From Chitinophaga pinensis (lineage in GTDB: Bacteria; Bacteroidota; Ignavibacteria; Kapaibacteriales; Kapaibacteriaceae), in assembly GCA_943372295.1 (NCBI GenBank), contig CALRYC010000004.1, positions 2,325 through 66,324 on the forward strand: a stretch of DNA of 64,000 bases, in the 5' to 3' direction. Each line of letters starts with the position of its first letter. Position 1 is the stretch's first letter. Below the pieces are notes generated by a model. That model was not told the origin of the DNA. It saw only the letters and a program-made list of their open reading frames with translations, and ran no database searches. Shown here one piece after another: positions 604 to 58,928 of this stretch. The position numbers and the translations under genes are program-made.

Positions 604-741
604 GGGTACTGGGTACTGGGTACTGGGTACTGGGTACTGGGTACTGGGTACTGCCGCGAAAGCGGGAATCTATCTTCGAACCTCTGGATTCCTGCTTTCG
701 CAGGAATGGAACCCCAAACCCCAAACCTCAAACCCCAAACC
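604..741. repeat. Composite repeat locus A: (GGGTACT)x7 at 604-652; mini-hairpins CCGC-GAAA-GCGG (654-665) and ATTCCTGC-TTTC-GCAGGAAT (688-707); (AACCCCA)x4.5 at 710-741
   Basis: Counted base by base. It lies in the convergent spacer between the ppsA stop and the 3' end of tRNA-Val. The reverse complement of 653-709 matches 50656-50712 (locus E core) at 49 of 57 positions. Confidence 0.95.
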
Positions 742-745
742 TACC

Positions 746-823
746 TGGTGGTCGCTATAGGATTTGAACCTATGACCTTTCGCGTGTGAGGCGAACGCTC
801 TGAACCAGCTGAGCTAAGCGACC
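746..823 (-). tRNA. tRNA-Val (anticodon CAC), CCA encoded
   Basis: Hand-folded cloverleaf: acceptor GGTCGCT/AGCGACC, D stem GCTC/GAGC, anticodon stem TTCGC/GCGAA with loop CTCACAC, T arm ATAGG-TTCAAAT-CCTAT, discriminator A plus CCA. Confidence 0.93.
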
Positions 824-838
824 AATTGGGCTGCAAGT

Positions 839-889
839 CTACGGTTCCCGGGGCATTTCTCCAAAGCCGGAGGCCAGCGGGAACCGTAG
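839..889 (+). promoter_or_regulatory. Long perfect hairpin in the leader of the TonB-dependent receptor gene
   Basis: CTACGGTTCCCG (839-850) pairs perfectly with CGGGAACCGTAG (878-889) around a 27-nt loop, and is followed by TTT. It lies 13 nt upstream of the GTG at 902. Function (attenuator or terminator) is not established. Confidence 0.4.
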
Positions 890-901
890 TTTCGCAGTCC
901 G

Positions 902-21405: not shown

Positions 21406-21505
21406 ATGGATCCCCGCTTTCGCGGGGATGACGTTCAGTACCCAGTACCCAGTACCCAGTAGCCAGTACCCAGTCCCCAGTCCCCAGTCCCCAGTCCCCA
21501 GTACC
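21406..21505. repeat. Composite repeat locus B: half-core ATGGATCCCCGCTTTCGCGGGGATGACGTT + 10 heptamers (CAGTACCx3, CAGTAGC, CAGTACC, CAGTCCCx4, CAGTACC)
   Basis: Perfect 7-bp stem TCCCCGC/GCGGGGA with a TTTC loop at 21411-21428. Heptamers counted at 21436-21505. Lies between the SEDS gene stop and the MerR-family gene start. Confidence 0.95.
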
Positions 21506-21527
21506 CCGACTTCTACTATCTTGCGTC

Positions 21528-24968: not shown

Positions 24969-25880
24969 GTGGCGTGCTCTCCAGACGTTGTGATACGTCA
25001 GCTTCTCATCCTGCTCATCATTGCCTGGCACGCCCCCTCCATGGGCGCGTCAGGCATTTCTTTTTCGTGGCAGACATCAGCGCAGCAGCAGGATTCCGTC
25101 AAGCCGCAGGCGGCAATTGACCCATGGCGACTCGGCGCCCTCACCACTGTGGGAGTTGGCGCATTTACCGTGGGGCACGGCTGGCTTAACAACCTCTGGT
25201 GGAAGGGGGCTCCTGCCGACTTCCATGTGAACGTGCAGCAGGACTGGACGTATGCGCTCGGGGCCGACAAGGTAGGCCACGCCTACTTCGCCGCAACATC
25301 GGCAACGCTCATCGCCGGTTCGCTGCGCTGGTCCGGACTCGACACCGCCTCGTCGCTCTGGTGGGGCTCGTCGATCGCCATGGCCTATCAGACATACAAC
25401 GAGGTCCGCGATGGATTCAGTCAGAACTACGGTTTCTCTCCCGGCGACATGGCAGGGAATCTTCTCGGCGCCGCATGGCCACTTGCTCAGCACTATGTGC
25501 CGGAACTGAAGGCCATCACCTTTCAGATCTCGTTCTACCCGTCAGAGCCATTCCGTAATGGATTTTATAATGCGATCATCGACGACTATGAAAGCACCAC
25601 GCACTGGCTGAGCGTTGACGTGCATCAGCTGCTTCCCCAAGCCGCCCAGGCCTGGTATCCTCCGTGGATCAATCTCGCCCTCGGCCACTCCGTCAGGGGG
25701 CTCGTCGGATCATCAACCCCACAGCACGTCTTTGTGCTTTCACTCGACTGGAACCTCAAACGACTGCCCTTCCTGCCAGACTGGCTGCGGCAAACCTTTG
25801 AGTACCTGCACATGTATCACCTGCCCGCACCGGCTGTGGAGATCACGCCGAACGTGCGGTGGGTCGGCTTGAGGTTTTAG
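24969..25880 (+). CDS. Hypothetical exported/membrane protein (possibly DUF2279-like)
   Basis: GTG start and hydrophobic N-terminus. The GADKVGHAYFAATSA and GFSPGDMAGNLLGA motifs resemble DUF2279 from memory. The stop TAG at 25878-25880 abuts repeat locus C. Confidence 0.55.
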   Translation: MACSPDVVIRQLLILLIIAWHAPSMGASGISFSWQTSAQQQDSVKPQAAIDPWRLGALTTVGVGAFTVGHGWLNNLWWKGAPADFHVNVQQDWTYALGADKVGHAYFAATSATLIAGSLRWSGLDTASSLWWGSSIAMAYQTYNEVRDGFSQNYGFSPGDMAGNLLGAAWPLAQHYVPELKAITFQISFYPSEPFRNGFYNAIIDDYESTTHWLSVDVHQLLPQAAQAWYPPWINLALGHSVRGLVGSSTPQHVFVLSLDWNLKRLPFLPDWLRQTFEYLHMYHLPAPAVEITPNVRWVGLRF

Positions 25881-26181
25881 CGCCGAAGCGGAGGGAAACC
25901 TGCGGAGGGAAACGCGCTGCGCGCGAGGGAAGCCGAAGCGGAGGGAAACCTGCGGAGGGAAGCCGAGGCGGAGGGAAACGCGCTTCGAGCGAGGGAAGCC
26001 GAGGCGGAGGGAAACGCGCTTCGCGCGAGGGAAACCGAAACGGAGGGAAACCGAAGCGGAGGGAAACGCGCTTCGCGCGAGGGAAGCCGAAGCGGAGGGA
26101 AACCTGCGGAGGGAAACCTGCGGAGGGAAGCGCGCTTCGCGCGAGGATCAACCTCACACCTCACACCCCACACCTCAAACC
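25881..26181 (+). repeat. Composite repeat locus C: 15 GAGGGAA units joined by CCGAAGCGG / CTGCGG / GCGCTTCGCGC linkers (25881-26150), junction GATCAACC, then (TCACACC)-type heptamers x4 (26154-26181)
   Basis: Units counted individually. The array starts at the base after the upstream stop codon, and the last heptamer contains the yjbR-like stop (26175-26177, minus strand). Confidence 0.95.
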
Positions 26182-26498
26182 TTCTTCTTGACCAGCCCAT
26201 ACGAATGATCGATCCAGTGGCGGATCTCGGTTGGGGTGAGTGAGCCATCGATGGTGATGGTGTTCCAGTGCTTTTTGTTCATGTGGAAGCCGGGCTGGAC
26301 GCAGGCGTGGCGTTCGCGGAGTTCAACGGCGGTTTCCGGGTCGCATTTGACGTTGAATTGTTGTGTGGGGGCATCGAGCGGGACCAGACAGAACACTTTG
26401 CTGTTGACCTTATAGACGATCACGTCGGGACCGAAGGGGAAGGTCTCTTCTGTGCCGGGGAGGCTGAGGCAGTGATTGCAGACATCGACGATATCCAT
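26175..26498 (-). CDS. MmcQ/YjbR-family protein
   Basis: 107 aa. LSLPGTEETFPFGPDVIVYKVNSKVFCL...MNKKHWNTITIDGSL is the typical YjbR-family pattern. Confidence 0.82.
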   Translation of the reverse strand: MDIVDVCNHCLSLPGTEETFPFGPDVIVYKVNSKVFCLVPLDAPTQQFNVKCDPETAVELRERHACVQPGFHMNKKHWNTITIDGSLTPTEIRHWIDHSYGLVKKKV

Positions 26499-26514
26499 GG
26501 GTGCAAAGTAAACG

Positions 26515-26547
26515 AAAAAGCCCCCTGACCGGGTGGTCAGGAGGCTT
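26515..26547 (-). terminator. Rho-independent terminator after the 138-aa secreted-protein gene
   Basis: On the minus strand, AGCCUCCUGACC-ACCC-GGUCAGGGGGCU forms 12 bp including one G-U pair, followed by UUUUU. Confidence 0.8.
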
Positions 26548-26572
26548 GTATCATTCAGTTCTTAGCGGGTTG

Positions 26573-26989
26573 TTACTTGCCTGAGCCTTGGGCGGCCTTG
26601 ACCGACTCGTTAAGAGCATTCATGATGTCTTTGAACGTGTCGGCTTCGGAGCCCTTGAGTGTTCCACGCTGCATCAGCAGGGCGAGGTTCTGGATCTGAT
26701 CGCCGCGCATTTCGACGGTGATGACATCATCGGTGGTCTTCTTGGCCTTCGTGGCCTCGTCGATGGCATCGCTGAGGACCTTACGGACGTCGAGGAAGGC
26801 ATCGACTTCGTTGCCGCGGATCTCGATGCCGCCAAGGAATTGGACAGCGCCCTGAATATAGGCGAGCTTGAGCTTTGGCTTTAGCACGACCGGTGCCTGA
26901 GCAGCAGGAGCGAGTGAGCCTTGAGCGAAAGAGTCCGTGCTGCCCAGGAAGAGGACGCCGGCGACTGCGATCATTGCGAAGATTTTCAT
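26573..26989 (-). CDS. Small secreted protein, paralog 1 (138 aa, unknown function)
   Basis: Signal peptide MKIFAMIAVAGVLFLGSTDSFA-Q. Aligns with the product of 27089-27511 (I-R--EVD-F-DVR--L, VE---Q--NL-LL-QR, AL-N---A). Confidence 0.75.
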   Translation of the reverse strand: MKIFAMIAVAGVLFLGSTDSFAQGSLAPAAQAPVVLKPKLKLAYIQGAVQFLGGIEIRGNEVDAFLDVRKVLSDAIDEATKAKKTTDDVITVEMRGDQIQNLALLMQRGTLKGSEADTFKDIMNALNESVKAAQGSGK

Positions 26990-27021
26990 GGTGTACGGCA
27001 GTTGTGGAGTGAAAAAGAGTG

Positions 27022-27054
27022 CAAAGGTACGGTTTGTGCGGGGTGCGAAGCAAG
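27022..27054 (-). promoter_or_regulatory. FCB-type promoter (cTTGc-N21-TACCTTTG) for paralog 1
   Basis: The reverse complement reads CTTG CTTCGCACCCCGCACAAACCG TACCTTTG. The -7 box lies about 32 nt upstream of the ATG at 26989. Confidence 0.55.
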
Positions 27055-27088
27055 ACGGCCGGGACGTGAACCAGCAGCGCGGGAGGGC

Positions 27089-27511: not shown

Positions 27512-27544
27512 GGTAATCTCGCTGTTGAAAGGAATGGGGACTCC

Positions 27545-32001: not shown

Positions 32002-32014
32002 CGTGCTTCGCACA

Positions 32015-32097
32015 GGTGTGAGGTGTGAGGTTGAGGTGTGAGGTGTGAGGTGTGAGGTGTGAGGTGTGAGGTGTGAGGTGTGAGGTGTGAGGTGTGA
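32015..32097. repeat. Locus D part 1: (GGTGTGA)x12 (one 6-nt GGTTGA variant)
   Basis: Counted: 32015-32028 (2 units), 32029-32034 (variant), 32035-32097 (9 units). Begins 13 nt after the permease TAA. Confidence 0.95.
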
Positions 32098-32280
32098 GGT
32101 TGATCCTCGCGCGCTGCGCTTCGCGCAGGTTTCAGGTTTCAGGTTTCAGGTTTCAGGTTTGAGGTGTGGGGTCCAACTCCGCTTCGGTTTCCCTCGCGCG
32201 CTGCGCTTCGCGCAGGTTTCAGGTTTCAGGTTTGAGGTGTGGGGTCCAACTCCGCTTCGGCTTCCCTCGCGCGCTGCGCG
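32098..32280. repeat. Locus D part 2: two direct copies (87 and 73 bp) of CCTCGCGCGCTGCGCTTCGCGCAG-(GGTTTCA)n-GGTTTGAGGTGTGGGGTCCAACTCCGCTTCGG-yTTC
   Basis: The copies start at 32105 and 32192 and differ by two GGTTTCA units (4 vs 2). A third, truncated start occurs at 32265. Confidence 0.9.
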
Positions 32281-32526
32281 TTTCCCTCCGCTTCGGTTTC
32301 CCTCGCGCGAAGCGCGTTGCCCTCCGCTTCGGTTTCCCTCGCGCGAAGCGCGTTGCCCTCCGCTTCGGTTTCCCTCGCGCGAAGCGCGTTTCCCTCCGCT
32401 TCGGCTTCCCTCGCGCGAAGCGCGTTTCCCTCCGCTTCGGTTTCCCTCGCGCGAAGCGCGTTTCCCTCCGCTTCGGTTTCCCTCGCGCGAAGCGCGTTTC
32501 CCTCCGCTTCGGCTTCCCTCCGCAGG
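32281..32526. repeat. Locus D part 3: 36-bp tandem repeat x6.8 (TTTCCCTCCGCTTCGG + TTTCCCTCGCGCGAAGCGCG)
   Basis: Unit boundaries at 32281, 32317, 32353, 32389, 32425, 32461 and 32497. There are no unique spacers. Ends at the base before the stop (32527-32529) of the minus-strand T9SS gene. Confidence 0.95.
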
Positions 32527-34626
32527 TTACCGCACGACCACGAGCGGAACGCTGATGTTCTGCCGCTGGCCCCTGATGGTAACCGTGTAGGTGCCCACCG
32601 GCAGAGATGTCACATCAAATGATGTTTGGTGCGTGCCGGCGGCCAGCACTCCGGCGTCGAAGGTCGAGACGGTGCGGCCCGTTACGTCGACGAGTGATAC
32701 GATGGCCATGCCGCCGGAGGAGAGAAAGAACTCCACGTTGACGTTATCGGAGGCAGGGTTAGGGGCGATGGTTGCCAGGACCGATGCTCCGGTTTCGACA
32801 TCATCGGTTACGTGCGTGGTTAGGACGCTTGCCCGCGCGCCACGCCCCATGTCGTAGTATGTTCCGCTGGCACTGGATAGAAGAGCGCAACAGCGGACCA
32901 TGTACTCGAGTGTTCCGTCGTTACGCAACGAGTCCTGATACGACGTAGCTGTGATAGGGCGGGTGGTAAGCGCTGTCCACTTCTTCGTGCCTTCCTTACG
33001 ACGGTAAACCATGTACGCATCGGCCGTGCCGGAGGGCTTGATCCATGAGAGTTTGACCTTGTTCGGAAACTCCGTCTTGGCTGTAATGGTGCCGAGTGCA
33101 GCGATCTGTTTCGGGTTGGAACGAAGTGTCGGATCACCAAGCAGGGCAATGTGGATCTGACGTTCAAGGCCTCCGGTGAGGGCATAGGACCCGTCAGCGT
33201 TGATGTTGATCACCTGCACGTAGTTGCCCAGAACTCCGCCAGAATAGATCTGCGAACTGTTCTGACTCAATCGGGTGCTGTATCCGATCGTCTCGCCAAG
33301 AGCCATGTGGTGGATGTACCAGTGTGGACGTCCGGACCAGGCCGACGTTAGCACGCGCGGATCCGTGGCAAGAGGCGCCCGCAGGAAATTATTCTGCGTG
33401 TTCCAGTCACCGAAGTAACTGCCGAACAGGAAGGTGAACACCGCATGAACCGGCTTTGTGGACATGTCGGTTGTGGAGCCGACGCCGCCGGCAGAGACAT
33501 CCGTTCCGGCTCCGCAGCCGTATCCGAGCAGGTAGGTCGTCGGCCCCTTAAGGTCGGTGAAAAAGTCGCCCGCACGTACCGCCGTATCCGGTCCGAACAC
33601 GCTGAAGCCCCGCCATGCCGATGCGCTGAATGCCTCGGGATAGGATGTGAAATTGTCATCAATGATCCCACCTGCGCGCACGCTCCATGCGCCTGTCCGG
33701 TAATCGTGGTTCTTCTTGAAGTAGTTCTTCAAAAGATCGGTCTCGCTCGATTTGAACAGCGGCATGTTGAAGAAGTCGATCCGCCCGACCGGTATGTCGA
33801 CGTCGGTGTTGAACACACTCTGGTCGAACTTCCCGTCGCCCGGGATGTTACTGTTCACTGGACGCGATGTGTTGGGCTGATTGGACGTGCGATCGGTATA
33901 GTTACCGTTGTGGTCGCCGTAGATGCCATCGGCAGGCCAAGCCCCCTGATGATCCGGCACATGTCCATCAGGTGCAATGACGCCGGAATATGGCACCGGC
34001 ACGCGTCCGACCAGGACGATCGCGCCAAGGTCGCGACCGCTGTTCCACTCCTGCTTAATAAGCGCCCGCACGCGGTTGACCTTGCCGGAATCAAAGGTCT
34101 CGGCGCGCGGCACTGACATGATGGTGACGTCCCAGCCCTCGTTAAGAAGATCCTGCTCGAAGGTGCTCAGCTGCGTTGCCAGCGGCTGACGCATGGTCGA
34201 GTCGACAAGCACAAGGGCACGTTCCCGTGGGGCAGGGGGCGCTTCGATCCCCGCATTGATGTAACCAACACCGCAGAAATTGACGTTTGCTGCGCCGTTC
34301 TTCCGACTGATAACACGAAACACGCGGTATTCGTAGGACTGTCCGGTCTCAATGTCATTGTCGGTCCATTCCAGCCCCTTGCCCACAACCGAGTCATAGA
34401 TCTCGGGGCTGAACACGGCGTTGTCCTTGAGCTTTCGCCAGATCAGCGCGCCGACCTGATTGTCGTCTTTGTTCCAGCGCAACGTGATCGATGGCTTCGT
34501 TCCTCCTACAACACGGGCGTTGAGCGAAAGTCCGAAATCGCGCGGAGCAGGGGCCTGTGCTTGTGTTACGACCACCATGGTGAGCGTAAGGATCGCGGCT
34601 GTAACCAAAGAGCGGATCAACGACAT
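32527..34626 (-). CDS. T9SS cargo protein with two Fn3-like domains and a central alpha/beta domain (possibly gingipain/C25-like)
   Basis: Start at ATG 34626 (MSLIRSLVTAAILTLTMVVVTQAQA signal). Fn3-like segments (ITLRWNKDD...YEYRV; KLSWIKPSG...YMV). C-terminus NPASDNVNVEF...VDVTGRTV...LPVGTYTVTI matches a Por-secretion tail. The C25 assignment is weak. Confidence 0.7.
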   Translation of the reverse strand: MSLIRSLVTAAILTLTMVVVTQAQAPAPRDFGLSLNARVVGGTKPSITLRWNKDDNQVGALIWRKLKDNAVFSPEIYDSVVGKGLEWTDNDIETGQSYEYRVFRVISRKNGAANVNFCGVGYINAGIEAPPAPRERALVLVDSTMRQPLATQLSTFEQDLLNEGWDVTIMSVPRAETFDSGKVNRVRALIKQEWNSGRDLGAIVLVGRVPVPYSGVIAPDGHVPDHQGAWPADGIYGDHNGNYTDRTSNQPNTSRPVNSNIPGDGKFDQSVFNTDVDIPVGRIDFFNMPLFKSSETDLLKNYFKKNHDYRTGAWSVRAGGIIDDNFTSYPEAFSASAWRGFSVFGPDTAVRAGDFFTDLKGPTTYLLGYGCGAGTDVSAGGVGSTTDMSTKPVHAVFTFLFGSYFGDWNTQNNFLRAPLATDPRVLTSAWSGRPHWYIHHMALGETIGYSTRLSQNSSQIYSGGVLGNYVQVININADGSYALTGGLERQIHIALLGDPTLRSNPKQIAALGTITAKTEFPNKVKLSWIKPSGTADAYMVYRRKEGTKKWTALTTRPITATSYQDSLRNDGTLEYMVRCCALLSSASGTYYDMGRGARASVLTTHVTDDVETGASVLATIAPNPASDNVNVEFFLSSGGMAIVSLVDVTGRTVSTFDAGVLAAGTHQTSFDVTSLPVGTYTVTIRGQRQNISVPLVVVR

Positions 34627-50026: not shown

Positions 50027-50601
50027 CAGCCGTGCATCGTCGGTTGATTGGTCATCGAACGGATAATGTCGGCCTCGATTCGGCCGAACTCTTTAAGTCG
50101 ACGCTTGACGTCCACCACCGGGAAGTACTCACGGGCGATGTCCGTATAAGCGCGGTAATGTCCGGCCTCGCTCGCCAGCAGACTCTTATACAGGGCCCGC
50201 ATATCCTCGGTTATTGCGTGCTCGGCCAGAAGGGAGAAGCGTTCGCAGGATCGCGCCTCGATGAACGCACCCACAATGAGCGAGTCTAAGAGTCGGTGTG
50301 GCTCGCTCTTGCGGATCTGCTCGTGAAGAAGCTGCGCATACCGGTTGCCGGTATCGTGACGCAGTGTGAAGCCCCTTGACTCGAGCTCTTTGACGACTAG
50401 CTCGAAGTGTTCCAGCTCCTCCTTGGCAAGATCGATCATGTCCTTTACCAGACGCGTGCGCTCGGGATAGCGATTGATCATCGCAAGGGCGAACGCCGCA
50501 GCCTTCTTCTCGCAATGGGCATGGTCGATCAGGATCTCAATCAAATGGTCGTTGGCAACTCCGATCCACTCGGGATTGGACTCGCATTCAAGGCAAAGCA
50601 T
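50026..50601 (-). CDS. miaE: tRNA-(ms2io6A37)-hydroxylase
   Basis: 191 aa. LIDHAHCEKKAA...EELEHFELV...IEARSCERF...EAGHY di-iron motifs typical of MiaE. Confidence 0.82.
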   Translation of the reverse strand: MLCLECESNPEWIGVANDHLIEILIDHAHCEKKAAAFALAMINRYPERTRLVKDMIDLAKEELEHFELVVKELESRGFTLRHDTGNRYAQLLHEQIRKSEPHRLLDSLIVGAFIEARSCERFSLLAEHAITEDMRALYKSLLASEAGHYRAYTDIAREYFPVVDVKRRLKEFGRIEADIIRSMTNQPTMHG

Positions 50602-50622
50602 GGGACGAAGTTACCGAGAATA

Positions 50623-50760
50623 GGTGTGAGGTGTGAGGTGTGGGGTGTGAGGTTGTCATTCCTGCGAAAGCAGAAATCCACGTATTCGAAGATGGATTCC
50701 CGCTTTCGCGGAAATGACGGCAGTACCCAGTACCCAGTACCCAGTACCCAGTACCCAGTC
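50623..50760. repeat. Composite repeat locus E: (GGTGTGA)x4 (50623-50650) + two-hairpin core (50656-50712) + (CAGTACC)x5.7 (50721-50760)
   Basis: Counted base by base. Lies between the stop of the beta-lactamase-like gene (50762) and the miaE start (50601), i.e. in the miaE promoter region. Confidence 0.95.
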
Positions 50761-50761
50761 T

Positions 50762-52069
50762 CTACTTCGCCAGAAGCTGCACGGCGCGTTCCATCAAGCC
50801 GGCGAATCGGGTTTCATCTACGCCGCCTTTGGGATCAAGCCAGGTGCCGCTGACGGCGTACCAGGTGCCGTTGGAGTGTTCCAGAAGGTAGGTCATGTTG
50901 ATGACTCCGGGTTCCGAGCCCCCTTTGTAGCAGGCGCGTTTCCAGGATCTGTCGATCTGCACTCCGCGATTGATACCGAGGATCTCCAGTGCCGTGGGGT
51001 CTTTGTGCATGAGCGCATCACGACGCAGCCAGTCCATTGCACGTGTCAGCTCTGCAGTGGTAGCAAACCACTCGATCGTATCGGGGGATGTCGGTTCCAT
51101 GGTGAAGTTGATTGAGTCATACGCTACGGCGGTGTCGATGTCCGACAGCATGGCGACTTTTTCCTCGGATGGTTTGCCGGCGTACTTCAGAGCAAGGCCG
51201 CCCGGAGTGTACTTCAGCTTGAAGGCCTGTAGCGTCGTCAGAAACGGCAGGTTGAGCTCAGGTCGGTCATGTCCCATGGCTGACTGCTGCTGTGCGACCT
51301 TGTTCTGCCTAAGTAGCCGGATAAGCGCATCAGTTGCGGTGTTGTCACTCTCGGAGATCATCATGGCAGCCAGAGTATGCAGTGTAAGGGGCGAGCCATG
51401 CGGCCACGTATGAAGACGTCCCGACGGCAAAGAACGGTATGCCGAGTCGAGCCGAACGATATCGGTCCACGAGCGCTCCTTCTGACGGATCGAGCGGACG
51501 AGTTCGCCCAGGACGTAGAGCTTAAACGTCGATCCGATGGGCAGGTGCTCTGCGGTGTTGATCGAGGCGATCACCGACCCACCGGTAAGGTTGGTGACCG
51601 TGAAGGAGGTCCTACCGCTCAGCGCCGCGAAGTTCTTGCCGAGCGAATCAAGAGTTGCCACGGCCTTGACGGGTGGACGTAGGAAGAAACCCGATATCAA
51701 GTAGGGGGCCTGTGCTTCAATGGTCAGCAGCACGGGGATGCTGTATCCGTTCTTGGTTGTTGCCTCGGCCGCAACTTGATACGCCGAGCGTCGTTCCACG
51801 ATGCGCATGCCCGTGCACGGCCCTGTCTCAATCGTCATCTGCTGCACGAGCATCCCGAGTTTCATCGGCGGCACCTGCTTGAGGAACTGACCGGTGAATG
51901 TCGAATCGTACATCACCGGCAGGCCGGAGATTATCCGACACACATCGTCGAGTCGGCGCGTGATGGCCGCATCGTCGCCGCACAACAGTGCACTTGGCAT
52001 CACCAGCGTCAACAACAGTGTCAGCCCGACCACTCCATGGAGTGGCCGCAGCAAGCCGTTCGTCTTCAT
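50762..52069 (-). CDS. Secreted serine hydrolase, class A beta-lactamase-like fold with N-terminal extension
   Basis: 435 aa with a signal peptide. S-T-F-K (PIGSTFKLY), S-D-N (SESDNTA) and K-G-G (YKGGSEPG) motifs in class A order. Confidence 0.75.
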   Translation of the reverse strand: MKTNGLLRPLHGVVGLTLLLTLVMPSALLCGDDAAITRRLDDVCRIISGLPVMYDSTFTGQFLKQVPPMKLGMLVQQMTIETGPCTGMRIVERRSAYQVAAEATTKNGYSIPVLLTIEAQAPYLISGFFLRPPVKAVATLDSLGKNFAALSGRTSFTVTNLTGGSVIASINTAEHLPIGSTFKLYVLGELVRSIRQKERSWTDIVRLDSAYRSLPSGRLHTWPHGSPLTLHTLAAMMISESDNTATDALIRLLRQNKVAQQQSAMGHDRPELNLPFLTTLQAFKLKYTPGGLALKYAGKPSEEKVAMLSDIDTAVAYDSINFTMEPTSPDTIEWFATTAELTRAMDWLRRDALMHKDPTALEILGINRGVQIDRSWKRACYKGGSEPGVINMTYLLEHSNGTWYAVSGTWLDPKGGVDETRFAGLMERAVQLLAK

Positions 52070-53250
52070 TTCAACTCCAATAAGGTGGAGACACGTGCTG
52101 ATGCTGACTCAAGAACAACGGCGTAGCTACCCGCAGGGAGCTTCGACAGATCAACGTCACGCTCTTGAGTGCCGGACTCTGCGGATTGATCTGCCACAAC
52201 AAGGGTGGTGAACATGGCCGCGTTGCAGATCTTCAGCGAGACGCGCTGCACATCAGGAACGGTGTAGCGGATGCGATACATAGAGCCGCTCATGCCGAGT
52301 CGGGTAACACTGATCGATGGCAGTCTCACGTCGCGCAACCGAGAGGCGGCCTCAGCACTTTCGGCGCGCAGGTAGAGCATTATGGCAGCGGCCGGACCCG
52401 AGTCCTCGCACTCCGACGTGGTCAGGTATCCATCAGCACTGGCCGTGAAGCAGACCGCTTCGCCCTGACGCTCGGGTTGGTATGGGACGCTTGTCCCTGT
52501 TCCCACGATCGCGCTGGTCAGAGGCTTCGTGGTATCCCGCTGCCACATCCATATTCGATGGTAGTTCTTCAAAAGAATCCTCCGACCGTCATCGGAGACG
52601 TCGCCGGCAGTGATGAGCTGATGGGGAAGGTCGCCATCGCGTCGAAGTGTGCGCTCGGAGCCGGACACATGCGGCGCCGAGACGGAGTATACCCTGCAGC
52701 GGCTCTCGCGCTTGGTGACAATGATGATGTCCCCCGATCGCGGATCCACGAGGAGAGCCTCGGCATCGCGCGCGCCATCCGGGTAGCGAAGCACGAAGCG
52801 CTCAATAGAGTCGGCAGGTATGCTGATACGAGCATCTCTCCAAGCTGTGTCGACCTGTGGTTCGCGGAGGCGATAAATGACGATCGATCCGCGTTTGCCG
52901 GAGTTATCTCCGATATCGGCCAGGTACAGATACGACACGCCCGGCACGGGGCCCGGGCCGCGGGCCATGTCCTCCCAGTCAATATGCGTCGAGCCGAGTA
53001 GGCGCACCACAGCAGCTACCCGTCCGGGCAATAGAACGGCAAAGATGCGTGGCTCATCACCTGAGTCGTTGTGCATCCACAATACACCGGGTGTCTGTGT
53101 TGATGCTACCAGGCCCGACACTTCCGGCAGGGTGGCAAGCGGCGTCGTGCCAACCCGAAACGGTCCACCGAACCACAACGGTTCGGTTTGGTTCTGAGCC
53201 AAACAGGCTACCGAGAGCGCAAGCAGGACGATCAGCTGAAGAGTCGGCAT
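52066..53250 (-). CDS. Secreted beta-propeller-like protein with T9SS-type C-terminal domain
   Basis: 394 aa with a signal peptide. LPEVSGLVAS...WMHNDSGDEP motif. The C-terminus VSLKICNAAMFTT...LPAGSYAVVLES resembles a Por-secretion tail. The start ATG directly follows the leuS TAG. Confidence 0.65.
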   Translation of the reverse strand: MPTLQLIVLLALSVACLAQNQTEPLWFGGPFRVGTTPLATLPEVSGLVASTQTPGVLWMHNDSGDEPRIFAVLLPGRVAAVVRLLGSTHIDWEDMARGPGPVPGVSYLYLADIGDNSGKRGSIVIYRLREPQVDTAWRDARISIPADSIERFVLRYPDGARDAEALLVDPRSGDIIIVTKRESRCRVYSVSAPHVSGSERTLRRDGDLPHQLITAGDVSDDGRRILLKNYHRIWMWQRDTTKPLTSAIVGTGTSVPYQPERQGEAVCFTASADGYLTTSECEDSGPAAAIMLYLRAESAEAASRLRDVRLPSISVTRLGMSGSMYRIRYTVPDVQRVSLKICNAAMFTTLVVADQSAESGTQERDVDLSKLPAGSYAVVLESASARVSTLLELK

Positions 53251-55806
53251 CTAGCGGACGATGAAGTTGATGAGTTTATTCGGAACGAAGACCTCCCGGA
53301 CGATCTCCTTTCCGTCAAGATGCCGGGCAATGGCCTCATCCAGACGTGCCAGGGATCCTGTCGTGGCCGCATCCGCATCGATGGGTACGATGATCTTCCC
53401 GCGGATCTTCGAGCTTACCTGCACCACGATCTCTACCTCGCTCAGTACAAGCTTGGACGGATCGAATTCCGGGAAGGTAGATGTGTGCACAGAGCCCTCG
53501 CCACCGAGGATGTGCCAAAGCTCTTCAGTGATGTGTGGCGCGAAGGGGGCAAGGCACTGCACATACTGGAGCATTGCCACACGCGGACGTACGTCAAGCT
53601 TGGTAAACTCGTTGACGAAGATCATCATCTGCGCGATCGCCGTGTTAAAGCTGATGGCGTCAACATCCTCCCGGATCTTCTTGATCGTTGCATGCAGCAC
53701 GCGCTCGAGTTCCGGCGGACATGGCACGTCCTGCACAGCAGGCCAGAGCGTGCTGTCTTCGGTGGCAATCATTCGCCACGACCGGTTAAGAAAACGCGTG
53801 ACACCCTCGATGCCCGTGGTGTTCCAGGGCTTGGAGGCTTCGAGCGGACCAAGGAACATCTCATAAAGGCGCAGAGCATCGGCGCCGTGAGCGGCGATGA
53901 CCTCGTCAGGGTTGACGACGTTGCCGAGCGACTTGGACATCTTACGTCCGTCTTCGCCCATGATCAGTCCCTGGTGAAAGAGGCGTTTGAACGGCTCGGG
54001 AGTGGAGACGTAGCCATAGTCATACAGCACCTTGTGCCAGAAGCGGGCATAGAGAAGGTGCAGCACCGCATGCTCGCCGCCTCCCATGTAGAGGTCTACA
54101 CCGTCGGCGCCCATCCAGTACTTCTCGGCTTCGGGGTCGCAGAACGTCGACGCATTAAACGGGTCGCAATAGCGCAGATAGTACCAGCACGAGCCGGCCC
54201 ACTGCGGCATCGTGTTTGTCTCCAGACGCGCCTTCTTGCCCGTTTTTGGGTCGATGAAGTTCACCCATGACTCGACGGTGGCAAGTGGCGACTCGCCCGT
54301 ACCGGCGGGTTTGAACTCGGCTACCTCCGGCAAGAGCAGTGGAAGCTCGTAGGCCTCAAGTGCGCGCTTGGTGCCGTCGTCGAAGAACATGATCGGTATC
54401 GGTTCGCCCCAGTAGCGCTGACGTGAGAACAGCCAGTCGCGCAGGCGGTACTGCAGGCGCCCCTTGCCAACACCCGACGATTCGAGCCATGCGATGATGG
54501 TCGACTTTGCGTCGGCCGTCGGCAGACCATTCAGGCTGACATGCTCGTTCTCGGAGTTCAGTCCAACGCCTTCGTCGGAGAATGCCGCGTCGGCAACGTC
54601 GATCGTTGAGCCATCGATCGGCTGAACCACTTGCACGATCGGCAGGCCAAAGGCGGTGGCAAACTCGTGATCACGCTCATCATGTCCGGGTACGGCCATG
54701 ATCGCACCTGTGCCGTAGTGAGCCAGCACGTAATCGGCAACCCAGATCGGCACGGCCGCGCCATTGGCCGGGTTGATGGCATATGCACCTGTGAACACAC
54801 CCGTTTTGACCTTGCTGAGCTCGGTTCGCTCGAGGTCACTTTTTAGAGCTGAGGTTTCGCGGTATGCGAGAACCTCGATGCGCTGCTCGTCTGTAACAAG
54901 GTGATCGACGATCGGATGCTCGGGAGCAACAACAAGATATGTGGCACCAAAGAGTGTGTCAGGACGAGTCGTAAACACTGTTATCGAGTGCTGAAGGTCC
55001 TGCACTGGGAAATGCACCTCAGCCCCCTCACTGCGTCCTATCCAGTGACGCTGCATGTCCAGCGTGGATGACGGCCAGTTGAGGATGTGGAGATCAGCAA
55101 GCAAACGCTCGGCGTATTCCGTAATGCGCAGCATCCACTGACGCATCGGCCGTCGTTCAACGCTGTAGCCCTTGTCTTTCCACTCGTCGACCTCTTCGTT
55201 GGCAAGCACCGTGCCGAGGGCCTCACACCAGTTCACGGGCGAGTAGGCGACATAAGCAAGACGATGCCGGTCGCGGTAGTCTTCGATGTCTGTGGCGGAG
55301 GTCAGCTCTGCTGGGATCGGCAACTCTTCGATCGGAAGGGCCTTGCCTGCAGCACGGTCGAACCACGAGTTGTACATGATCAGAAACATCCACTGCGTCC
55401 AGCGGTAGTAGTCCGGAAGCGTGGTGTTAACCTCGCGTGACCAGTCGTAATCGAAGCCGATGGCGTTGAGCTGACGTTTGAACGTGGCAATGTTGTTTGC
55501 CGTAGCGATCGACGGGTGAATCCCCGTCGTCATGCTGTAGCGCTCCGTTGGCAGACCAAACGCATCGAAGCCCATCGGATGCAGGACGTTGAAGCCGCAC
55601 ATCCGCTTAAATCGGCTGATGATATCCGTGGCTGTGTATCCTTCCGGATGGCCAATATGCAGTCCGGCCCCTGACGGATAGGGGAACATGTCAAGAACGT
55701 AGTACTTCGGCTTCGAGCGGTCGCTGCTGACGGCCGTAGTGCCATACTGCGCCCAGTGGCGCTGCCATTTTTCTTCGATGGATGCGAATGGATAGTGCAT
55801 CCGCAA
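53251..55806 (-). CDS. leuS: Leucyl-tRNA synthetase
   Basis: 851 aa. PYPSGAGLHIGHPEGY (HIGH) and KMSKSLGN (KMSKS) motifs. Confidence 0.95.
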   Translation of the reverse strand: MRMHYPFASIEEKWQRHWAQYGTTAVSSDRSKPKYYVLDMFPYPSGAGLHIGHPEGYTATDIISRFKRMCGFNVLHPMGFDAFGLPTERYSMTTGIHPSIATANNIATFKRQLNAIGFDYDWSREVNTTLPDYYRWTQWMFLIMYNSWFDRAAGKALPIEELPIPAELTSATDIEDYRDRHRLAYVAYSPVNWCEALGTVLANEEVDEWKDKGYSVERRPMRQWMLRITEYAERLLADLHILNWPSSTLDMQRHWIGRSEGAEVHFPVQDLQHSITVFTTRPDTLFGATYLVVAPEHPIVDHLVTDEQRIEVLAYRETSALKSDLERTELSKVKTGVFTGAYAINPANGAAVPIWVADYVLAHYGTGAIMAVPGHDERDHEFATAFGLPIVQVVQPIDGSTIDVADAAFSDEGVGLNSENEHVSLNGLPTADAKSTIIAWLESSGVGKGRLQYRLRDWLFSRQRYWGEPIPIMFFDDGTKRALEAYELPLLLPEVAEFKPAGTGESPLATVESWVNFIDPKTGKKARLETNTMPQWAGSCWYYLRYCDPFNASTFCDPEAEKYWMGADGVDLYMGGGEHAVLHLLYARFWHKVLYDYGYVSTPEPFKRLFHQGLIMGEDGRKMSKSLGNVVNPDEVIAAHGADALRLYEMFLGPLEASKPWNTTGIEGVTRFLNRSWRMIATEDSTLWPAVQDVPCPPELERVLHATIKKIREDVDAISFNTAIAQMMIFVNEFTKLDVRPRVAMLQYVQCLAPFAPHITEELWHILGGEGSVHTSTFPEFDPSKLVLSEVEIVVQVSSKIRGKIIVPIDADAATTGSLARLDEAIARHLDGKEIVREVFVPNKLINFIVR

Positions 55807-55829
55807 ATATAGGGGGCGAGTGTTGTGGG

Positions 55830-57659
55830 CTAGGGGGCGACCACCGAGGTGGTTGCTGATTGCTCACGTGCCAGGCCCCGAATTTCTTCACTCAGTTCAG
55901 ACAGCGACAGAACCATGAATCCATCGAGAGCGTTCGAAAACGCAGCATCGACGTTGAAGGCCACCATCTGCGCATTCTGCTGAGCGTATTTCTTGAGAAG
56001 GATCGGACAGCTGGACCCGTCGGGTTCGATATGAGCGATGAGTTTATCAAGCAGTCGCATGTCATCGTTGATCGGATGCATGAGATCATCTATCTCAATG
56101 CCGGGAAGATCAGCTTTGAATGGCGCTCTTGGTTGAACGTGTCCGTACAACGACGAAGTTGCTGCGCGGCGCATGAAGAACGCTCGGATGATCTCCTTGG
56201 ATACGTCACGGTAGCGGTCCGAGACCGAAACGCACCCAACGATGGCTTCCAGTTCAGGATGGCTGATGATGTACGTTAAAATGCCTCGCCACAATAGGTG
56301 CAGGGGCAGACGTTGACGTTGAAACTCCGGTCGAACGAAAGAACGACCGAGTTCAAGACAGCTTCTCATCATTGCCCGTGCCGTATCGTCGAAGTGGAAC
56401 AGAGATGCCGAGTACATCCCACTGATTCCGTGCTTTTCCATGATGCGGCCACCGTGCCCAAGCCGATATGATCCGGCAATGCACTTTGATGGGCGATGCC
56501 ACAGGACAAGATGTTCATAATGCCGGTCGTAAGCGTCGATGTCCAGCGCGGTGCCCGTTCCTTCGCCTACGTGACGGAAGGTTATCTCCCGAAGTCGACC
56601 GATCTCGTGAAGGATATTTGGAGCCGTGTCTCGTTGCATCAGGAAAACGTCAAAGTCGCCCTGCGTAAGTAGGCGGCAACTATCAAGCTGGTCGATTTCC
56701 GTTTCGATGGCTTCACAGCTCACCGTGCCAGCCACGGCAGGCAGCACAACCTTGGGCATTGAGGCATCGGCACTTCTTTTCAGTAGTGCAGGAGACTTTA
56801 GATAAACGATCGTTCTGAGAAATCTTCCAAGGTCCTGTGCGCTTGACGATGCTTGGATGATCCCCCGATGAATTGGAGCACCAAACGTGATGGACATCAA
56901 GCCATTTCGCTGACGAAGCAGTTCCGAGGGAAGAAGTGCGGTGCGAAGTCGCGGATGGATCTTTCCTGCAGCATAGAACAGCGATGAATTCCGGCCGGTG
57001 ATGAATGCCGGAACAACCTCCGCAGAGGTGCGTTGAATGATCTTTGAGATTGTCTCGCTCCAAGGTCTGTCTACCGGCCCAAGACCATTCACGAGGGTCG
57101 ACGAGACCTCGCCGGCAGGGAAAACGACCAACACACCTCCTTGGTTGAGATGATGCAGGGCCTTACGAAAACCACCGATGTTGGCGCTTACCGACGTCGG
57201 GGTATTGAACGGATCAACGTCGATCAGCACTTCGCGCAGAGGCTCAATCCGCTGCAGAACGTAGTTGGTCATGATGCGCACGTCCTTACGTCGCCGAAGC
57301 ACTGCGCCGAGCAATCCGACCCCGTCGAGTGCACCAAGGGGATGATTGGCAACAACCACGACAGGCCCGGAGTCTGGAATCAATGCCAGGGACTCCTCGT
57401 TCACGTCGAGGCGCACATTGAGAATCTTGAACAGCTGGTCAGTGAATGACTCGAGATCGAGATGCGCACACCGTGCATAGATGTCATTGATCTCATCGAG
57501 TCGTAACACCCACCTCGCCATGTGTACGACAGGATCGATCGGCTTGCGCCCCAGAGCAGCGGCGAGCTCTTGATGTGTAAGGAGTCCTTTGGTTGGTCGA
57601 TCGTTCTCGTGCGCGCAGGGATAGATGGCTGCTGCGGGTTCTGCTGAAGAGTTTGCCAC
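55830..57659 (-). CDS. Two-domain acyltransferase, OlsF-like (N-terminal PlsC-type O-acyltransferase + C-terminal OlsB-type GNAT N-acyltransferase)
   Basis: VVVVANHPLGALDG (HX4D) in the N-terminal half. DIDAYDRHYEHLVLWHR...IAGSYRL in the C-terminal half resembles OlsB-type aminolipid N-acyltransferases. Confidence 0.65.
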   Translation of the reverse strand: MANSSAEPAAAIYPCAHENDRPTKGLLTHQELAAALGRKPIDPVVHMARWVLRLDEINDIYARCAHLDLESFTDQLFKILNVRLDVNEESLALIPDSGPVVVVANHPLGALDGVGLLGAVLRRRKDVRIMTNYVLQRIEPLREVLIDVDPFNTPTSVSANIGGFRKALHHLNQGGVLVVFPAGEVSSTLVNGLGPVDRPWSETISKIIQRTSAEVVPAFITGRNSSLFYAAGKIHPRLRTALLPSELLRQRNGLMSITFGAPIHRGIIQASSSAQDLGRFLRTIVYLKSPALLKRSADASMPKVVLPAVAGTVSCEAIETEIDQLDSCRLLTQGDFDVFLMQRDTAPNILHEIGRLREITFRHVGEGTGTALDIDAYDRHYEHLVLWHRPSKCIAGSYRLGHGGRIMEKHGISGMYSASLFHFDDTARAMMRSCLELGRSFVRPEFQRQRLPLHLLWRGILTYIISHPELEAIVGCVSVSDRYRDVSKEIIRAFFMRRAATSSLYGHVQPRAPFKADLPGIEIDDLMHPINDDMRLLDKLIAHIEPDGSSCPILLKKYAQQNAQMVAFNVDAAFSNALDGFMVLSLSELSEEIRGLAREQSATTSVVAP

Positions 57660-57777
57660 TCACAACGTTAGGCGCAGTAGTGTTACGCCAACGAAAAGTC
57701 ACCATTAGCTTTCGACAATACAGATGGGCGTAGCTTTGTCCTTCGGAATATCACCACCAGTAACCAGCAACTTCACC

Positions 57778-58749
57778 ATGAACCACGTCAATCTTGGCCG
57801 CACTGGTCTGAAAGTCTCCCGCCTCTGCCTCGGCACCATGAACTTCGGTCACTGGATCGAGGAGCAGGATTCCTATCCGGTGATGAGCCGTGCGCTTGAG
57901 CATGGCATCAATTTCTTCGATACGGCGAATGTTTACGGATATGACAAGGGCAGGGGGCGTACCGAAGAGGTCATCGGTAACTGGCTGGCGCAGGACCCGT
58001 CGCGTCGTGACAAGATCGTTCTCGCAACGAAACTCTACAGTCCTATGGCCGATGGGGTGAACGACCGCGGCTGCTCTGCGTACCACATCAAGAAGGCCTG
58101 CGAGGATTCACTGCGAAGGCTCAAGACAGATCACATCGATCTGTATCAAATGCATCACATTGATCGTTCGACGCCGTGGGAGGAGCTCTGGCAGGCAATG
58201 GAACAGCTTGTGCGCGAGGGCAAGATCCTCTACGTGGGCTCAAGCAACTTTGCCGCATGGAACATGGCGCAGGCCAGTGAGCGTGCAAAGCAGCGCCACT
58301 TCCTCGGACTCGTCAGCGAGCAGAGCGTGTACTCACTTCGCAACCGTCACATCGAACTCGAAGTGATCCCTGCTGCAAAGGCCTACGGCATGGCCATCCT
58401 GCCGTGGAGTCCACTTGGAGGGGGCTTGCTGGCCGGCATCTTCTCAAAGTCCGACACGCTTCGTCGCAAGCGTCCGCAGCTTATCGAGGCCGCCGAAAAA
58501 CTACGTCCACAGGTTGAGCAGTATGAAGCTCTGTGCGCAAGACTTGGTCTAGACTGCGCCGACGTTGCCCTTGCATGGCTGCTTCAGCGCGACGGCGTCA
58601 CAAGCCCCATCATCGGCCCGCGCACAGTCGAACAGCTCGACGCCAACGTTGCCTCCATGAACATCACGCTCGAGGCTAACACCCTTGCCGAACTCGACCG
58701 CATCTGGCCGGGGCCGGGCAATCAGGCTCCCGAGGCGTACGCGTGGTAG
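57778..58749 (+). CDS. Aldo/keto reductase
   Basis: Start at ATG 57778 (MNHVNLGRTGLKVSRLCLGTMNFG). DTANVYG, DLYQMHH and SNFAAW motifs. The TAG at 58747-58749 abuts repeat locus F. Confidence 0.88.
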   Translation: MNHVNLGRTGLKVSRLCLGTMNFGHWIEEQDSYPVMSRALEHGINFFDTANVYGYDKGRGRTEEVIGNWLAQDPSRRDKIVLATKLYSPMADGVNDRGCSAYHIKKACEDSLRRLKTDHIDLYQMHHIDRSTPWEELWQAMEQLVREGKILYVGSSNFAAWNMAQASERAKQRHFLGLVSEQSVYSLRNRHIELEVIPAAKAYGMAILPWSPLGGGLLAGIFSKSDTLRRKRPQLIEAAEKLRPQVEQYEALCARLGLDCADVALAWLLQRDGVTSPIIGPRTVEQLDANVASMNITLEANTLAELDRIWPGPGNQAPEAYAW

Positions 58750-58928
58750 GAAGCCGAAACGGAGGGAAGCCGAAACGGAGGGAAGCGCGCTCCGCGCGAG
58801 GGAAGCCGAAACGGAGGGAAGCCGAAACGGAGGGAAGCCGAAACGGAGGGAAGCCGAAACGGAGGGAAGCCTGCGGAGTTTGAACCTCACACCTCACACC
58901 TCACACCTCACACCTCACACCTCACTAC
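58750..58928 (+). repeat. Composite repeat locus F: 7 GAGGGAA units (mostly 16-bp GGAGGGAAGCCGAAAC) + junction GGAGTTTGAACC + (TCACACC)x5 plus one degenerate unit (58887-58928)
   Basis: Counted base by base. Same orientation as locus C. The last degenerate heptamer contains the stop (58925-58927) of the minus-strand OMP gene. Confidence 0.95.

Follow-up and report, generated by a model that had tools for sequence, protein, structure and literature searches.

Six gene-end repeat clusters in a 64-kb bacterial contig window appear to be mosaics of CGTC-1-type stem-loops, heptanucleotide arrays and a lineage-restricted satellite

Six non-coding repeat loci, designated A to F, are found in a 64-kb window of contig CALRYC010000004.1 (the window being the whole stretch of DNA that was analyzed, 64,000 nucleotides). 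The host is assigned, from HisRS and neighboring genes that point to Candidatus Kapabacteria (best named match 79% identical), to Candidatus Kapabacteria/Kapaibacteriota, an Ignavibacteria/Chlorobi relative. The genes of the window are all housekeeping genes, for example those for FtsW, EF-P, AccC, LeuRS, a UvrD-like helicase, MiaE and proteins sorted by the type IX secretion system (T9SS), and no transposase, Y1/RAYT gene, Cas gene or other nuclease candidate is present among them. All six loci are intergenic, adjoin gene ends and occupy nearly the entire spacer in which they lie. The distance from stop codon to array is 0-12 nt at A, C, D, E-right and F, with the stop codon overlapped in three cases, and the arrays of B and E-left stop 20-21 nt short of a start codon. 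By manual reading of the gene order, there are five convergent gaps of 100 nt or more (the gap before tRNA-Val, which contains locus A, is counted); the family lies in four of these, in two co-directional gaps (B and E) and in none of the divergent, promoter-bearing gaps. The family is a mosaic of a catalogued class of extragenic palindromes, generic heptanucleotide simple sequence repeats (SSRs) and one lineage-specific satellite.

To define the arrays, Tandem Repeats Finder was run over the whole window; it supplies the array coordinates, units and copy numbers used below. Every array of the original prediction, which had been made from the letters of the window, was recovered at its position, and the six loci, their unit types and their copy numbers were borne out by this program and by pattern searches. 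Ten period-7 arrays were obtained, with 3.7-12.6 copies and 88-100% matches, and the units that contain GAGGGAA in C, D and F measure 14, 16, 20 and 36 nt. The pattern GCGGAGGGAARC was found 25 times against 0.82 expected in the window and is confined to C, D and F; the hairpin pattern described below was found five times against 0.00 expected. A chance origin of the six loci is thereby excluded, and a window-wide repeat search revealed no family member beyond them. The features are as follows, where REP denotes a repetitive extragenic palindromic element.

604..653, + strand: locus A left arm, (GGGTACT)7.1; starts within the TAG codon 602-604; canonical G-quadruplex motif
650..672, + strand: locus A left CGTC-1-type REP, ACTGCCGC-GAAA-GCGGGAAT-CTA; tag and 5' stem half overwritten by the array
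673..684, no strand: locus A inter-REP spacer, with the central palindrome TTCGAA at 675-680
685..711, - strand: locus A right CGTC-1-type REP, TTCC-ATTCCTGC-GAAA-GCAGGAAT-CCA; forms one 19-bp hairpin with the left REP
710..741, - strand: locus A right arm, (AACCCCA)4.6 on the + strand, which is (TGGGGTT)n on the - strand; ends 4 nt short of the tRNA-Val 3' end
746-823, - strand: tRNA-Val beside locus A
21407..21433, - strand: locus B single CGTC-1 REP, CGTC-ATCCCCGC-GAAA-GCGGGGAT-CCA; 7 nt past the FtsW stop codon 21397-21399
21436..21506, - strand: locus B heptamers, (GGTACTG)n and (GGGACTG)4 on the - strand, given as (CAGTACC/CAGTCCC)10.1 on the + strand by Tandem Repeats Finder; on the tag side of the REP and 21 nt before the MerR start
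25883..26146, + strand: locus C GAGGGAA arm, 14/16/20-nt units of GAGGGAA and a GC mini stem-loop; about 3 nt past the DUF2279 stop codon
26139..26150, + strand: locus C type I junction, GCGCGAGGATCA followed by ACCTCAC; kept at more than 10 lineage loci
26151..26182, - strand: locus C heptamers, (ACCTCAC)4.6 on the + strand, which is (GTGAGGT)n on the - strand; includes the YjbR stop codon 26175-26177 (- strand)
32014..32100, + strand: locus D (AGGTGTG)12.6; 12 nt past the stop codon of an amino-acid permease
32101..32125, + strand: locus D type I junction in opposite-strand reading, GGTTGAT-CCTC-GCGCGCTGCGCTTCGCGC; a GC stem-loop with the tag CCTC
32126..32249, + strand: locus D (CAGGTTT)5.7 at 32126-32165 and (CAGGTTT)3.7 at 32213-32238, with the type II junction GAGGTGTGGGGTCCAACTCCGC; a 73-nt unit is duplicated over 32140-32279 (98%)
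32250..32526, - strand: locus D GAGGGAA arm; on the + strand a 36-nt unit x7.5 (CCTC-CGCTTCGG-TTT and CCTC-GCGCGAAGCGCG-TTT; 96% identity over 32250-32520); reaches the stop codon (32527-32529, - strand) of the gene for a T9SS-sorted protein
50622..50653, + strand: locus E (AGGTGTG)4.6; lies upstream of the start codon of MiaE (encoded on the - strand), at a distance of 20 nt
50654..50680, + strand: locus E left CGTC-1 REP, TGTC-ATTCCTGC-GAAA-GCAGAAAT-CCA
50681..50692, no strand: locus E spacer, with a central TTCGAA
50693..50719, - strand: locus E right CGTC-1 REP, CGTC-ATTTCCGC-GAAA-GCGGGAAT-CCA
50721..50759, - strand: locus E heptamers, (CAGTACC)5.6 on the + strand, which is (GGTACTG)n on the - strand; canonical G-quadruplex motif; begins about 2 nt past the stop codon (50762-50764, - strand) of a beta-lactamase-like gene
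58750..58871, + strand: locus F GAGGGAA arm, a 16-nt unit x7.4 and one 20-nt GC stem-loop unit; starts from the stop codon of an aldo/keto reductase
58872..58883, + strand: locus F type II junction, GCGGAGTTTGA followed by ACCTCAC
58884..58925, - strand: locus F heptamers, (ACCTCAC)6.0 on the + strand, which is (GTGAGGT)n on the - strand; abuts the stop codon 58925-58927 (- strand) of a DUF5723 gene

The conserved core of A and E is an inverted pair of CGTC-1-type REP elements, and locus B has a single copy. On the strand that carries the GAAA loop, the consensus reads [C/T]GTC-AT(T/C)CC(C/T)GC-GAAA-GC(G/A)GG(A/G)AT-CCA. The CGTC-1 class was defined by a CGTC tag with the variants TGTC and CCTC, an 8-bp stem that opens with A-T pairs, a 4-nt loop and a CCA tail (Di Nocera, De Gregorio & Rocco 2013, BMC Genomics 14:522, PMC3733652). 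In the window, the tag is CGTC in B and E-right and TGTC in E-left, and the copies of A are degraded (TTCC) or overwritten by an array. The stem (ATTCCCGC-GAAA-GCGGGAAT and variants) has 8 bp with A-T pairs in the first and second positions and a 4-nt loop, is 94.6% paired over 14 copies and shows compensatory changes at two pairs; the CCA tail is present in 9/9 tagged copies of the lineage. The elements of A and E are inverted dimers with their tails facing inward, B is a singleton, and all lie past stop codons. This placement is that of the published class, whose copies are mostly inverted dimers that are intergenic, downstream of open reading frames (ORFs) and between co-directional or convergent genes (PMC3733652); the tails-inward orientation may correspond to the label 'HH' of that paper.

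The REP is not particular to this organism. Five copies were found in the 64 kb and more in related contigs, the exact 27-mer consensus is present in 64 IMG/VR stretches, and a blastn search with the E core gave matches in Neisseria, Novosphingobium, Sphingobium, Sphingopyxis and Azospirillum. The published hosts of CGTC-1 elements are Proteobacteria, Chlorobi, Bacteroidetes, Spirochaetes and Thermotogae, and Neisseria, Azospirillum and sphingomonad species are among those listed; the class, which typically numbers tens to thousands of copies per genome, equals Neisseria dRS3, includes Rickettsia RPE-6 and is without a dedicated transposase (PMC3733652). The original prediction would have given way to a catalogued REP family with a known transposase: the catalogued family has indeed been found, but not the transposase. 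Its 57-bp core is likewise present in A and E, with half of it in B, but this core is not made of two separate hairpins. Instead, the inverted pair folds into one long hairpin of 19-26 bp, more stable than shuffled sequences in both A (z = -4.1) and E (z = -5.6).

Other classes of structured element were also compared with the loci. The inverted hairpin doublet of REPINs (REP doublets forming hairpins) is present in A and E, and the tag is CGTC rather than GTAG, with no gene for a REP-associated tyrosine transposase (RAYT) in the window. A description of each whole locus as a hairpin holds for A and E and is false, by folding, for B and F; the RNA of locus F has less structure than shuffled versions of it (z = +2.2). 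Canonical G-quadruplex motifs (four runs of at least three G separated by 1-7 nt) occur in the window only in the arrays of A, B and E (604; 21507, - strand; 50756, - strand), and the G-quadruplex was rejected as a general explanation because the GGTGTGA, GGTTTCA and GAGGGAA units do not fit this motif. With Rfam, only two tRNAs in the whole window reach gathering thresholds, and a permissive E-value search of 25800-32600 and 50500-59000, which covers C to F, returned nothing in the loci.

Loci C, D and F contain a second kind of stem-loop. On their C-rich strand, the GAGGGAA units are head-to-tail repeats of CCTC, a GC mini stem-loop and TTT (CCTC-GCGCGAAGCGCG-TTT and CCTC-CGCTTCGG-TTT), which look like miniature tagged stem-loops and fail the stem and loop dimensions of the CGTC family. 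The GAGGGAA module (pattern GAGGGAARCCGARRCGGAGGGAA) was found in only 14 Joint Genome Institute (JGI) metagenome stretches from four samples and thus appears to be lineage-restricted; two of the 14 (contigs L122 and L129) are the orthologous regions of a 93-95% identical relative. A C-rich heptamer arm directly follows the GAGGGAA array on the same strand in 17/19 cases, and it is found on the other side in none. Direct reading confirmed both junction identities that had been quoted: the reverse complement of C 26139-26160 is identical to D 32091-32112, and that of F 58873-58894 is similar to D 32161-32182. The composite junction is kept, in two types (I and II), at about 20 dispersed loci of the lineage, in agreement with the claim of one modular family with conserved junctions. 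Since it is reused in this way, also at a non-orthologous site in a relative (contig L125), the composites disperse as units. The same contig L125 contains a small gene (1292-1722) flanked on both sides by inverted GAGGGAA arrays (946-1237 and 1725-1980), the second of which runs from 5 nt past the stop codon of this gene to the stop codon of a convergent gene; judged by its sequence, its product may be a four-helix-bundle protein.

The composite of GAGGGAA unit, junction and heptamer could derive from, or mimic, the 3' end of 16S rRNA (helix 45 and GGAUCACCUCC), and would then act through a factor or ribosomal site that recognizes this sequence. When locus C is aligned locally with the E. coli 16S 3' tail (AAGCGGAGGGAAACCTGCGGAGGGAA-ACCT against AACCGTAGGGGAACCTGCGGTTGGATCACCT), a score of 16 is obtained, compared with a mean of 8.9 and a maximum of 14 in shuffles (0/400); with a generic variant of the tail, this score is attained by 2/400 shuffles. 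There is also a resemblance between the type I junction GGATCAACCTC and GGATCACCTCC, and the 14-nt unit GGAGGGAAACCTGCGG (window 25888-26160, and also at the junctions of D and F) resembles helix 45 and the tail, GTAGGGGAACCTGCGG(T/C)TGGATCACCTCC. This comparison was made post hoc, however, with a presumed E. coli or generic tail sequence that may not be that of the host. The type II junctions match the linker poorly, A, B and E have no resemblance to rRNA, and cores like the Shine-Dalgarno (SD) sequence are not enriched in heptamer arrays generally. An origin or role of this kind is considered very unlikely.

In short-read data, the family repeats systematically break the assemblies of this lineage. 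Two Logan contigs (L002 and L003, from ERR9580602), which match the window with 100% identity, end after the first units of arrays B and D, at window positions 21457 and 32060, and three contigs of relatives (L134, L136 and L137) also end shortly past FtsW. Such breaks could suggest that the arrays are artefacts of assembly or compression, and the long ORFs that can be drawn across C, D and F could suggest coding repeats. The artefact was rejected, since independent assemblies agree on the array starts and on whole arrays: related arrays are base-identical (100%) between independent metagenomes over 3826 nt, with four arrays, and over 1145 nt. A JGI contig (L001) of a 99.36% identical strain spans B and C, and relatives carry orthologous loci. 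As for coding, three overlapping + strand ORFs are listed across the array of D, and the ORFs across the C, D and F arrays have no Pfam match, consistent with the non-coding nature that had been predicted. A CRISPR array does not fit contiguous units that lack unique spacers, in a window that lacks cas genes. A miniature inverted-repeat transposable element (MITE) does not fit loci without defined termini or target duplications, whose arrays enter stop codons in different phases; the predicted absence of transposase, spacers and target duplications is thus upheld for the genes and loci of the window. Artefact, coding repeat, CRISPR array and MITE with a known transposase together retain almost no likelihood.

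The clusters change rapidly between strains. Relative to the window, array B of the 99.36% identical strain is longer by five GGTACTG units, and locus C of this strain is rearranged, with an additional module of a hairpin and (CCTGAAA)n. In the 93-95% relative, C and F lie at the same sites in the same orientation with other unit mixtures, so that the composites persist at orthologous sites across about 7% divergence, and locus D is absent. At the position of D in this relative (L122 7737-7789), no heptamer or GAGGGAA arrays are present and the spacer consists of other sequence, including (TG)26. In a relative with 77% HisRS identity, the B site upstream of MerR contains three tandem copies of the REP and no heptamers, a difference that fits the REP as the older resident and the arrays as fast-evolving additions. 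Two more distant relatives have at the B site a gene of about 754 residues between FtsW and MerR (L133 14049-17213 and L135 11798-15607), for which no Pfam match was obtained, together with a gain of 0.7-1.5 kb of non-coding DNA. Exact-protein look-ups returned the permease beside locus D from the same strain only and the gene beside locus E from no other contig. At locus A, the TAG codon (602-604) closes a short histidine-kinase-like remnant frame: over window 317-604, likeness to the HATPase C-terminus of histidine kinases is limited to the last ~45 codons before A (…IELMGGSVRVESSPGRGTYVEVTLPSLT*), and the frame upstream is stop-ridden. Locus A therefore adjoins a gene remnant between the end of a PpsA-like ORF (stop codon 314-316) and tRNA-Val.

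The heptamers are coupled to the tag of the stem-loop. Every tagged REP of the lineage (9/9) is joined at its tag side to a G-rich array of period 7, whereas in other organisms a period-7 signal at this place, even a weak one, is seen in just 3/77 copies of this REP. The heptamer is not always of one type (GGTACTG, GGTGTGA, GGTTTCA or TTTGGGG), and the arrays begin 0-4 nt from the tag and sometimes overwrite it (TTTC, TTCC) or half of the stem (A-left). A strand-specific nuclease, HUH/Y1-like or other, that nicks the CGTC/CCTC tag could generate this arrangement if the freed 3'-OH were extended with reiterative slippage into a G-rich 7-nt array 5' of the tag. The proximity of the arrays to the tag, their rarity at the same REP in other taxa and the CCTC-tagged mini stem-loops, which also follow the tag-side rule, agree with this idea. 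So do the REPs without arrays at the B site of the distant relative, which make the arrays look secondary, and the precedent of the GTAG tags of other REPs, which are RAYT cleavage sites (PMC3733652). Nevertheless, the window offers no candidate nuclease and none is known for CGTC REPs (PMC3733652), convergent arrays without a stem-loop exist in other phyla, and neither the 7-nt step nor the G-richness is accounted for. Nicking and extension at the tag is accordingly viewed as an unlikely source of the arrays.

Similar heptamers are widespread. An exact scan for (GGTGTGA)3, with one genome per species (species representatives), listed matches in at least 115 stretches from more than 12 phyla. 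Among the matches listed are Cyanobacteria, Bacteroidota (about 26 loci), Gemmatimonadota, Planctomycetota, Chloroflexota, Proteobacteria, Actinobacteria, Firmicutes, Acidobacteriota, Fibrobacter, Cloacimonadota, Ignavibacteria, Balneolaceae and an archaeon of the ANME-1 group (anaerobic methanotrophs). The 8-kb flanks of these matches contain 62 further, unselected period-7 arrays with 52 distinct units. Neither SD cores nor stop codons are enriched in the 62 arrays relative to letter shuffles, and a general SD-like or stop-codon role of the heptamers was rejected on this basis. The heptamer arrays are ordinary heptanucleotide long SSRs, similar to the short tandemly repeated repetitive (STRR) sequences: they consist of head-to-tail 7-nt units in non-coding DNA and vary in copy number at kept sites. 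The strict STRR class belongs to heterocystous cyanobacteria, whereas the host here belongs to Kapabacteria and most units appear to differ; the unit GGGACTG of locus B is a rotation of the Nostoc unit GGGGACT.

According to the papers that cite Mrazek 2007, heptanucleotides outnumber every other class of long SSR in most genomes (PMC4692102, PMC4679880), and polymerase slippage is the explanation tied to these over-represented heptamers (cited by Rehm et al. 2015). In Xanthomonas and Nostoc, heptameric arrays are mostly intergenic, lie 0-50 bp from a stop codon when on the coding strand, or upstream of start codons when on the non-coding one, form convergent pairs and differ in length among relatives; those of Xanthomonas are transcribed from both strands (Rehm et al. 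2015, PLoS One 10:e0144275). TAACTGA arrays of up to 43 copies occur in Beggiatoaceae, cyanobacteria and five Bacteroidetes (MacGregor 2015, Front Microbiol 6:1397, PMC4679880). Together with the spread of (GGTGTGA)3, the latter report contradicts the original impression that no description of heptamer arrays was known for T9SS-bearing bacteria of the Fibrobacteres-Chlorobi-Bacteroidetes (FCB) group.

Further arrays were observed in the related contigs and elsewhere. The heptamers GTCATTG, GTCATCG, GGTCATC and AATGACC are present in the lineage (L119 3281-3328 and 10532-10656; L124 1-112; L127 1799-1846; L132 4-86); some of these units contain the GTCAT that is also present at the REP tag and stem start, and some are presumably near, or rotations of, the cyanobacterial STRR2 unit TTGGTCA. 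Period-8 arrays, (ATTACGGG)9.9 and (CGTAATTC)8.9, at L119 6303-6381 and L121 10872-10942 indicate that the microsatellites of the lineage are not all heptameric. A 68-73-nt tandem repeat with the hairpin CCCACGGCTGAAGCCGTGGG is common to an Ignavibacteria metagenome-assembled genome (MAG; JBEIIK01, L005 4763-4965) and a contig of the Kapabacteria lineage (L123 1-322); in L005 it has a G-rich (GGTGTGA) arm on one side and a C-rich (CTTGTCA) arm on the other. In an ANME-1 archaeal MAG (L070 2649-2722), (AGGTTTG)4.9 and (CTCACAC)4.6 form a convergent pair between convergent ORFs, and thus the convergent-pair architecture is not limited to Bacteria.

A fixed order is observed in the clusters: stop codon, G-rich heptamer array, tag and stem-loop(s), center, followed by the same elements mirrored on the opposite strand. 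This arrangement means that the G-rich strands always converge. Across the window and the at least 115 listed genome loci, adjacent array pairs run from G-rich to C-rich in 31 cases and the reverse in none, and the genes that flank such pairs are convergent in 12 cases, co-directional in eight and divergent in one. Arrays adjacent to stop codons are G-rich on the coding strand by 67:18, at a median distance of 2 nt, a count that rests on crude ORF calls. Because convergent arrays without a stem-loop between them occur in other phyla, the general polarity rule needs no tag.

These placement rules raise the possibility that the loci have a function as 3'-end modules, namely that of directional insulators or terminators, a tentative proposal that is compatible with the mosaic interpretation given below. 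Polymerase leaving a gene would first produce G-rich RNA, which offers no Rho loading site, then the hairpin(s), and then C-rich, G-poor and unstructured RNA such as (CACACCU)n, (CAGUACC)n or GC mini-hairpins with UUUCCCU; Rho or serial weak intrinsic terminators would halt it before antisense entry into the neighboring gene. The sense bias of the G-rich strand in arrays that abut stop codons, its strict convergence and the enrichment of the family between convergent genes, with absence between divergent ones, all favor such a role, as do the hairpins of the REP pairs and the RNA-level roles proposed for REPs in the literature (PMC3733652). In a Gemmatimonadales genome, two array arms flank canonical bidirectional terminators, and in the lineage the presence of the composites at orthologous sites is kept despite the change in content. 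In contrast, a scan of B to D for canonical sigma-70 promoters and intrinsic terminators gave counts no higher than those of shuffled sequence, with no match inside the arrays except for a weak one at the D junction; canonical terminators are thus absent from the loci scanned. A canonical intrinsic terminator (13-bp stem and T-run) is present at window 26518-26547 (- strand), between co-directional genes near C, and the organism therefore uses standard terminators elsewhere. In both B and E, only 20-21 nt separate the C-rich arm from the start codon of the co-directional gene downstream, which leaves no room for a promoter, so that efficient termination there would silence this gene. The complete lack of D in a close relative, the high diversity of the heptamer units with no motif enrichment and the transcription of both strands in Xanthomonas (Rehm et al. 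2015) likewise weigh against insulation.

The interpretation preferred here, with a probability of roughly 0.7, is that the loci are non-coding mosaic clusters of extragenic repeats that fill the 3'-end spacers of housekeeping genes and evolve by slippage, in the manner of bacterial interspersed mosaic elements (BIMEs) and neisserial intergenic mosaic elements (NIMEs). Three components are combined in them. The first consists of CGTC-1-type REP stem-loops, single in B and in inverted pairs that fold as a long hairpin in A and E; the second is the lineage-restricted satellite of CCTC-tagged GC mini stem-loops, that is, the GAGGGAA units of C, D and F; and the third is formed by heptanucleotide microsatellites of the STRR/long-SSR kind. 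Slipped-strand mispairing would expand, contract and homogenize the arrays, and the stem-loop/junction composites would spread via a trans-acting activity or ectopic recombination. Transcripts of the loci would belong to the 3'-untranslated region (3'-UTR) or be intercistronic, and the REP hairpins in them may serve as 3'-end stem-loops. The strand polarity would reflect transcription-linked selection or mutation bias rather than a sequence-specific function of the 7-mer. The diversity of the units (52/62), the spread of (GGTGTGA)3 and the published placement rules argue for the heptamers as generic slippage products.

Several observations sit poorly with this interpretation. Loci B, C and D, which were scanned, have no canonical intrinsic terminator, and a simple role as hairpin-terminators misses C, D and F, since loci of the F type are less structured than shuffles. 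Plain slippage leaves the restriction of arrays to the tag side (9/9 vs 3/77) unexplained, and it does not account for identical junctions at many sites, so that a dispersal mechanism is needed. Finally, the polarity also holds upstream of start codons (B and E-left), where the argument from the 3'-UTR fails.

BIMEs of E. coli and NIMEs of Neisseria are extragenic mosaics of REP-type palindromes and short motifs in variable order and number. The partners here differ from theirs in that they are microsatellites and mini stem-loop arrays rather than unique-sequence motifs, and the sequences and host are unrelated. In mosaic intergenic regions of Neisseria, repeats of other families are interspersed with the CGTC-1 elements, and the original suggestion that mosaics of hairpins and arrays had no precedent is therefore not sustained, as REPs mixed with other repeats in such regions were already known. 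With the CGTC-1 REPs the loci share the tag, the 8-bp AT-initial stem, the 4-nt loop, the CCA tail, the single or inverted-pair copies, the 3' intergenic placement and a 27-nt consensus that is the exact sequence of many other bacteria; they differ in the G-rich heptamers on the tag side of each tagged copy. REPINs have in common with A and E the inverted REP doublet with a short spacer, the single hairpin and the extragenic dispersal, but are GTAG-tagged and RAYT-linked (Bertels & Rainey 2011, PLoS Genet 7:e1002132).

The heptamers of Xanthomonas and Nostoc (Rehm et al. 2015) resemble those of the window as 7-nt intergenic arrays in convergent pairs that keep their position with varying length. 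Apart from the phylum, the difference is that many units occur here side by side (GGTGTGA, GGTTTCA, GGGTACT, TTTGGGG and GGTCATT), that only some of them are G-quadruplex-capable and that the arrays are joined to tagged stem-loops. The TAACTGA arrays (MacGregor 2015) are also intergenic heptamers at gene boundaries in FCB-group bacteria, but they have one specific unit, lie mostly just upstream of starts in forward orientation and were proposed as a protein-binding site, with no hairpin partner described. The coupling of heptamers and stem-loop at the tag side, the conserved composite junction and the arrays of GAGGGAA/CCTC mini stem-loops appear to be new, as no prior description of them was found.

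The loci carry no genes; the finding is descriptive, and a function is unproven. If the order holds genome-wide, this lineage links the pan-bacterial CGTC REPs, for which no mobilizing enzyme is known, with the over-represented heptanucleotide arrays. Should nicking and extension at the tag prove true, heptamer microsatellites would be manufactured at REPs, and this would provide a mechanism both for the dominance of the 7-nt period and for the processing of CGTC REPs. In practice, the arrays could serve as strain-typing loci, and they break the short-read contigs of the lineage at predictable places. The polarity of 31:0 and the median stop distance of 2 nt extend the observation made in Xanthomonas and Nostoc, and may represent a general rule.

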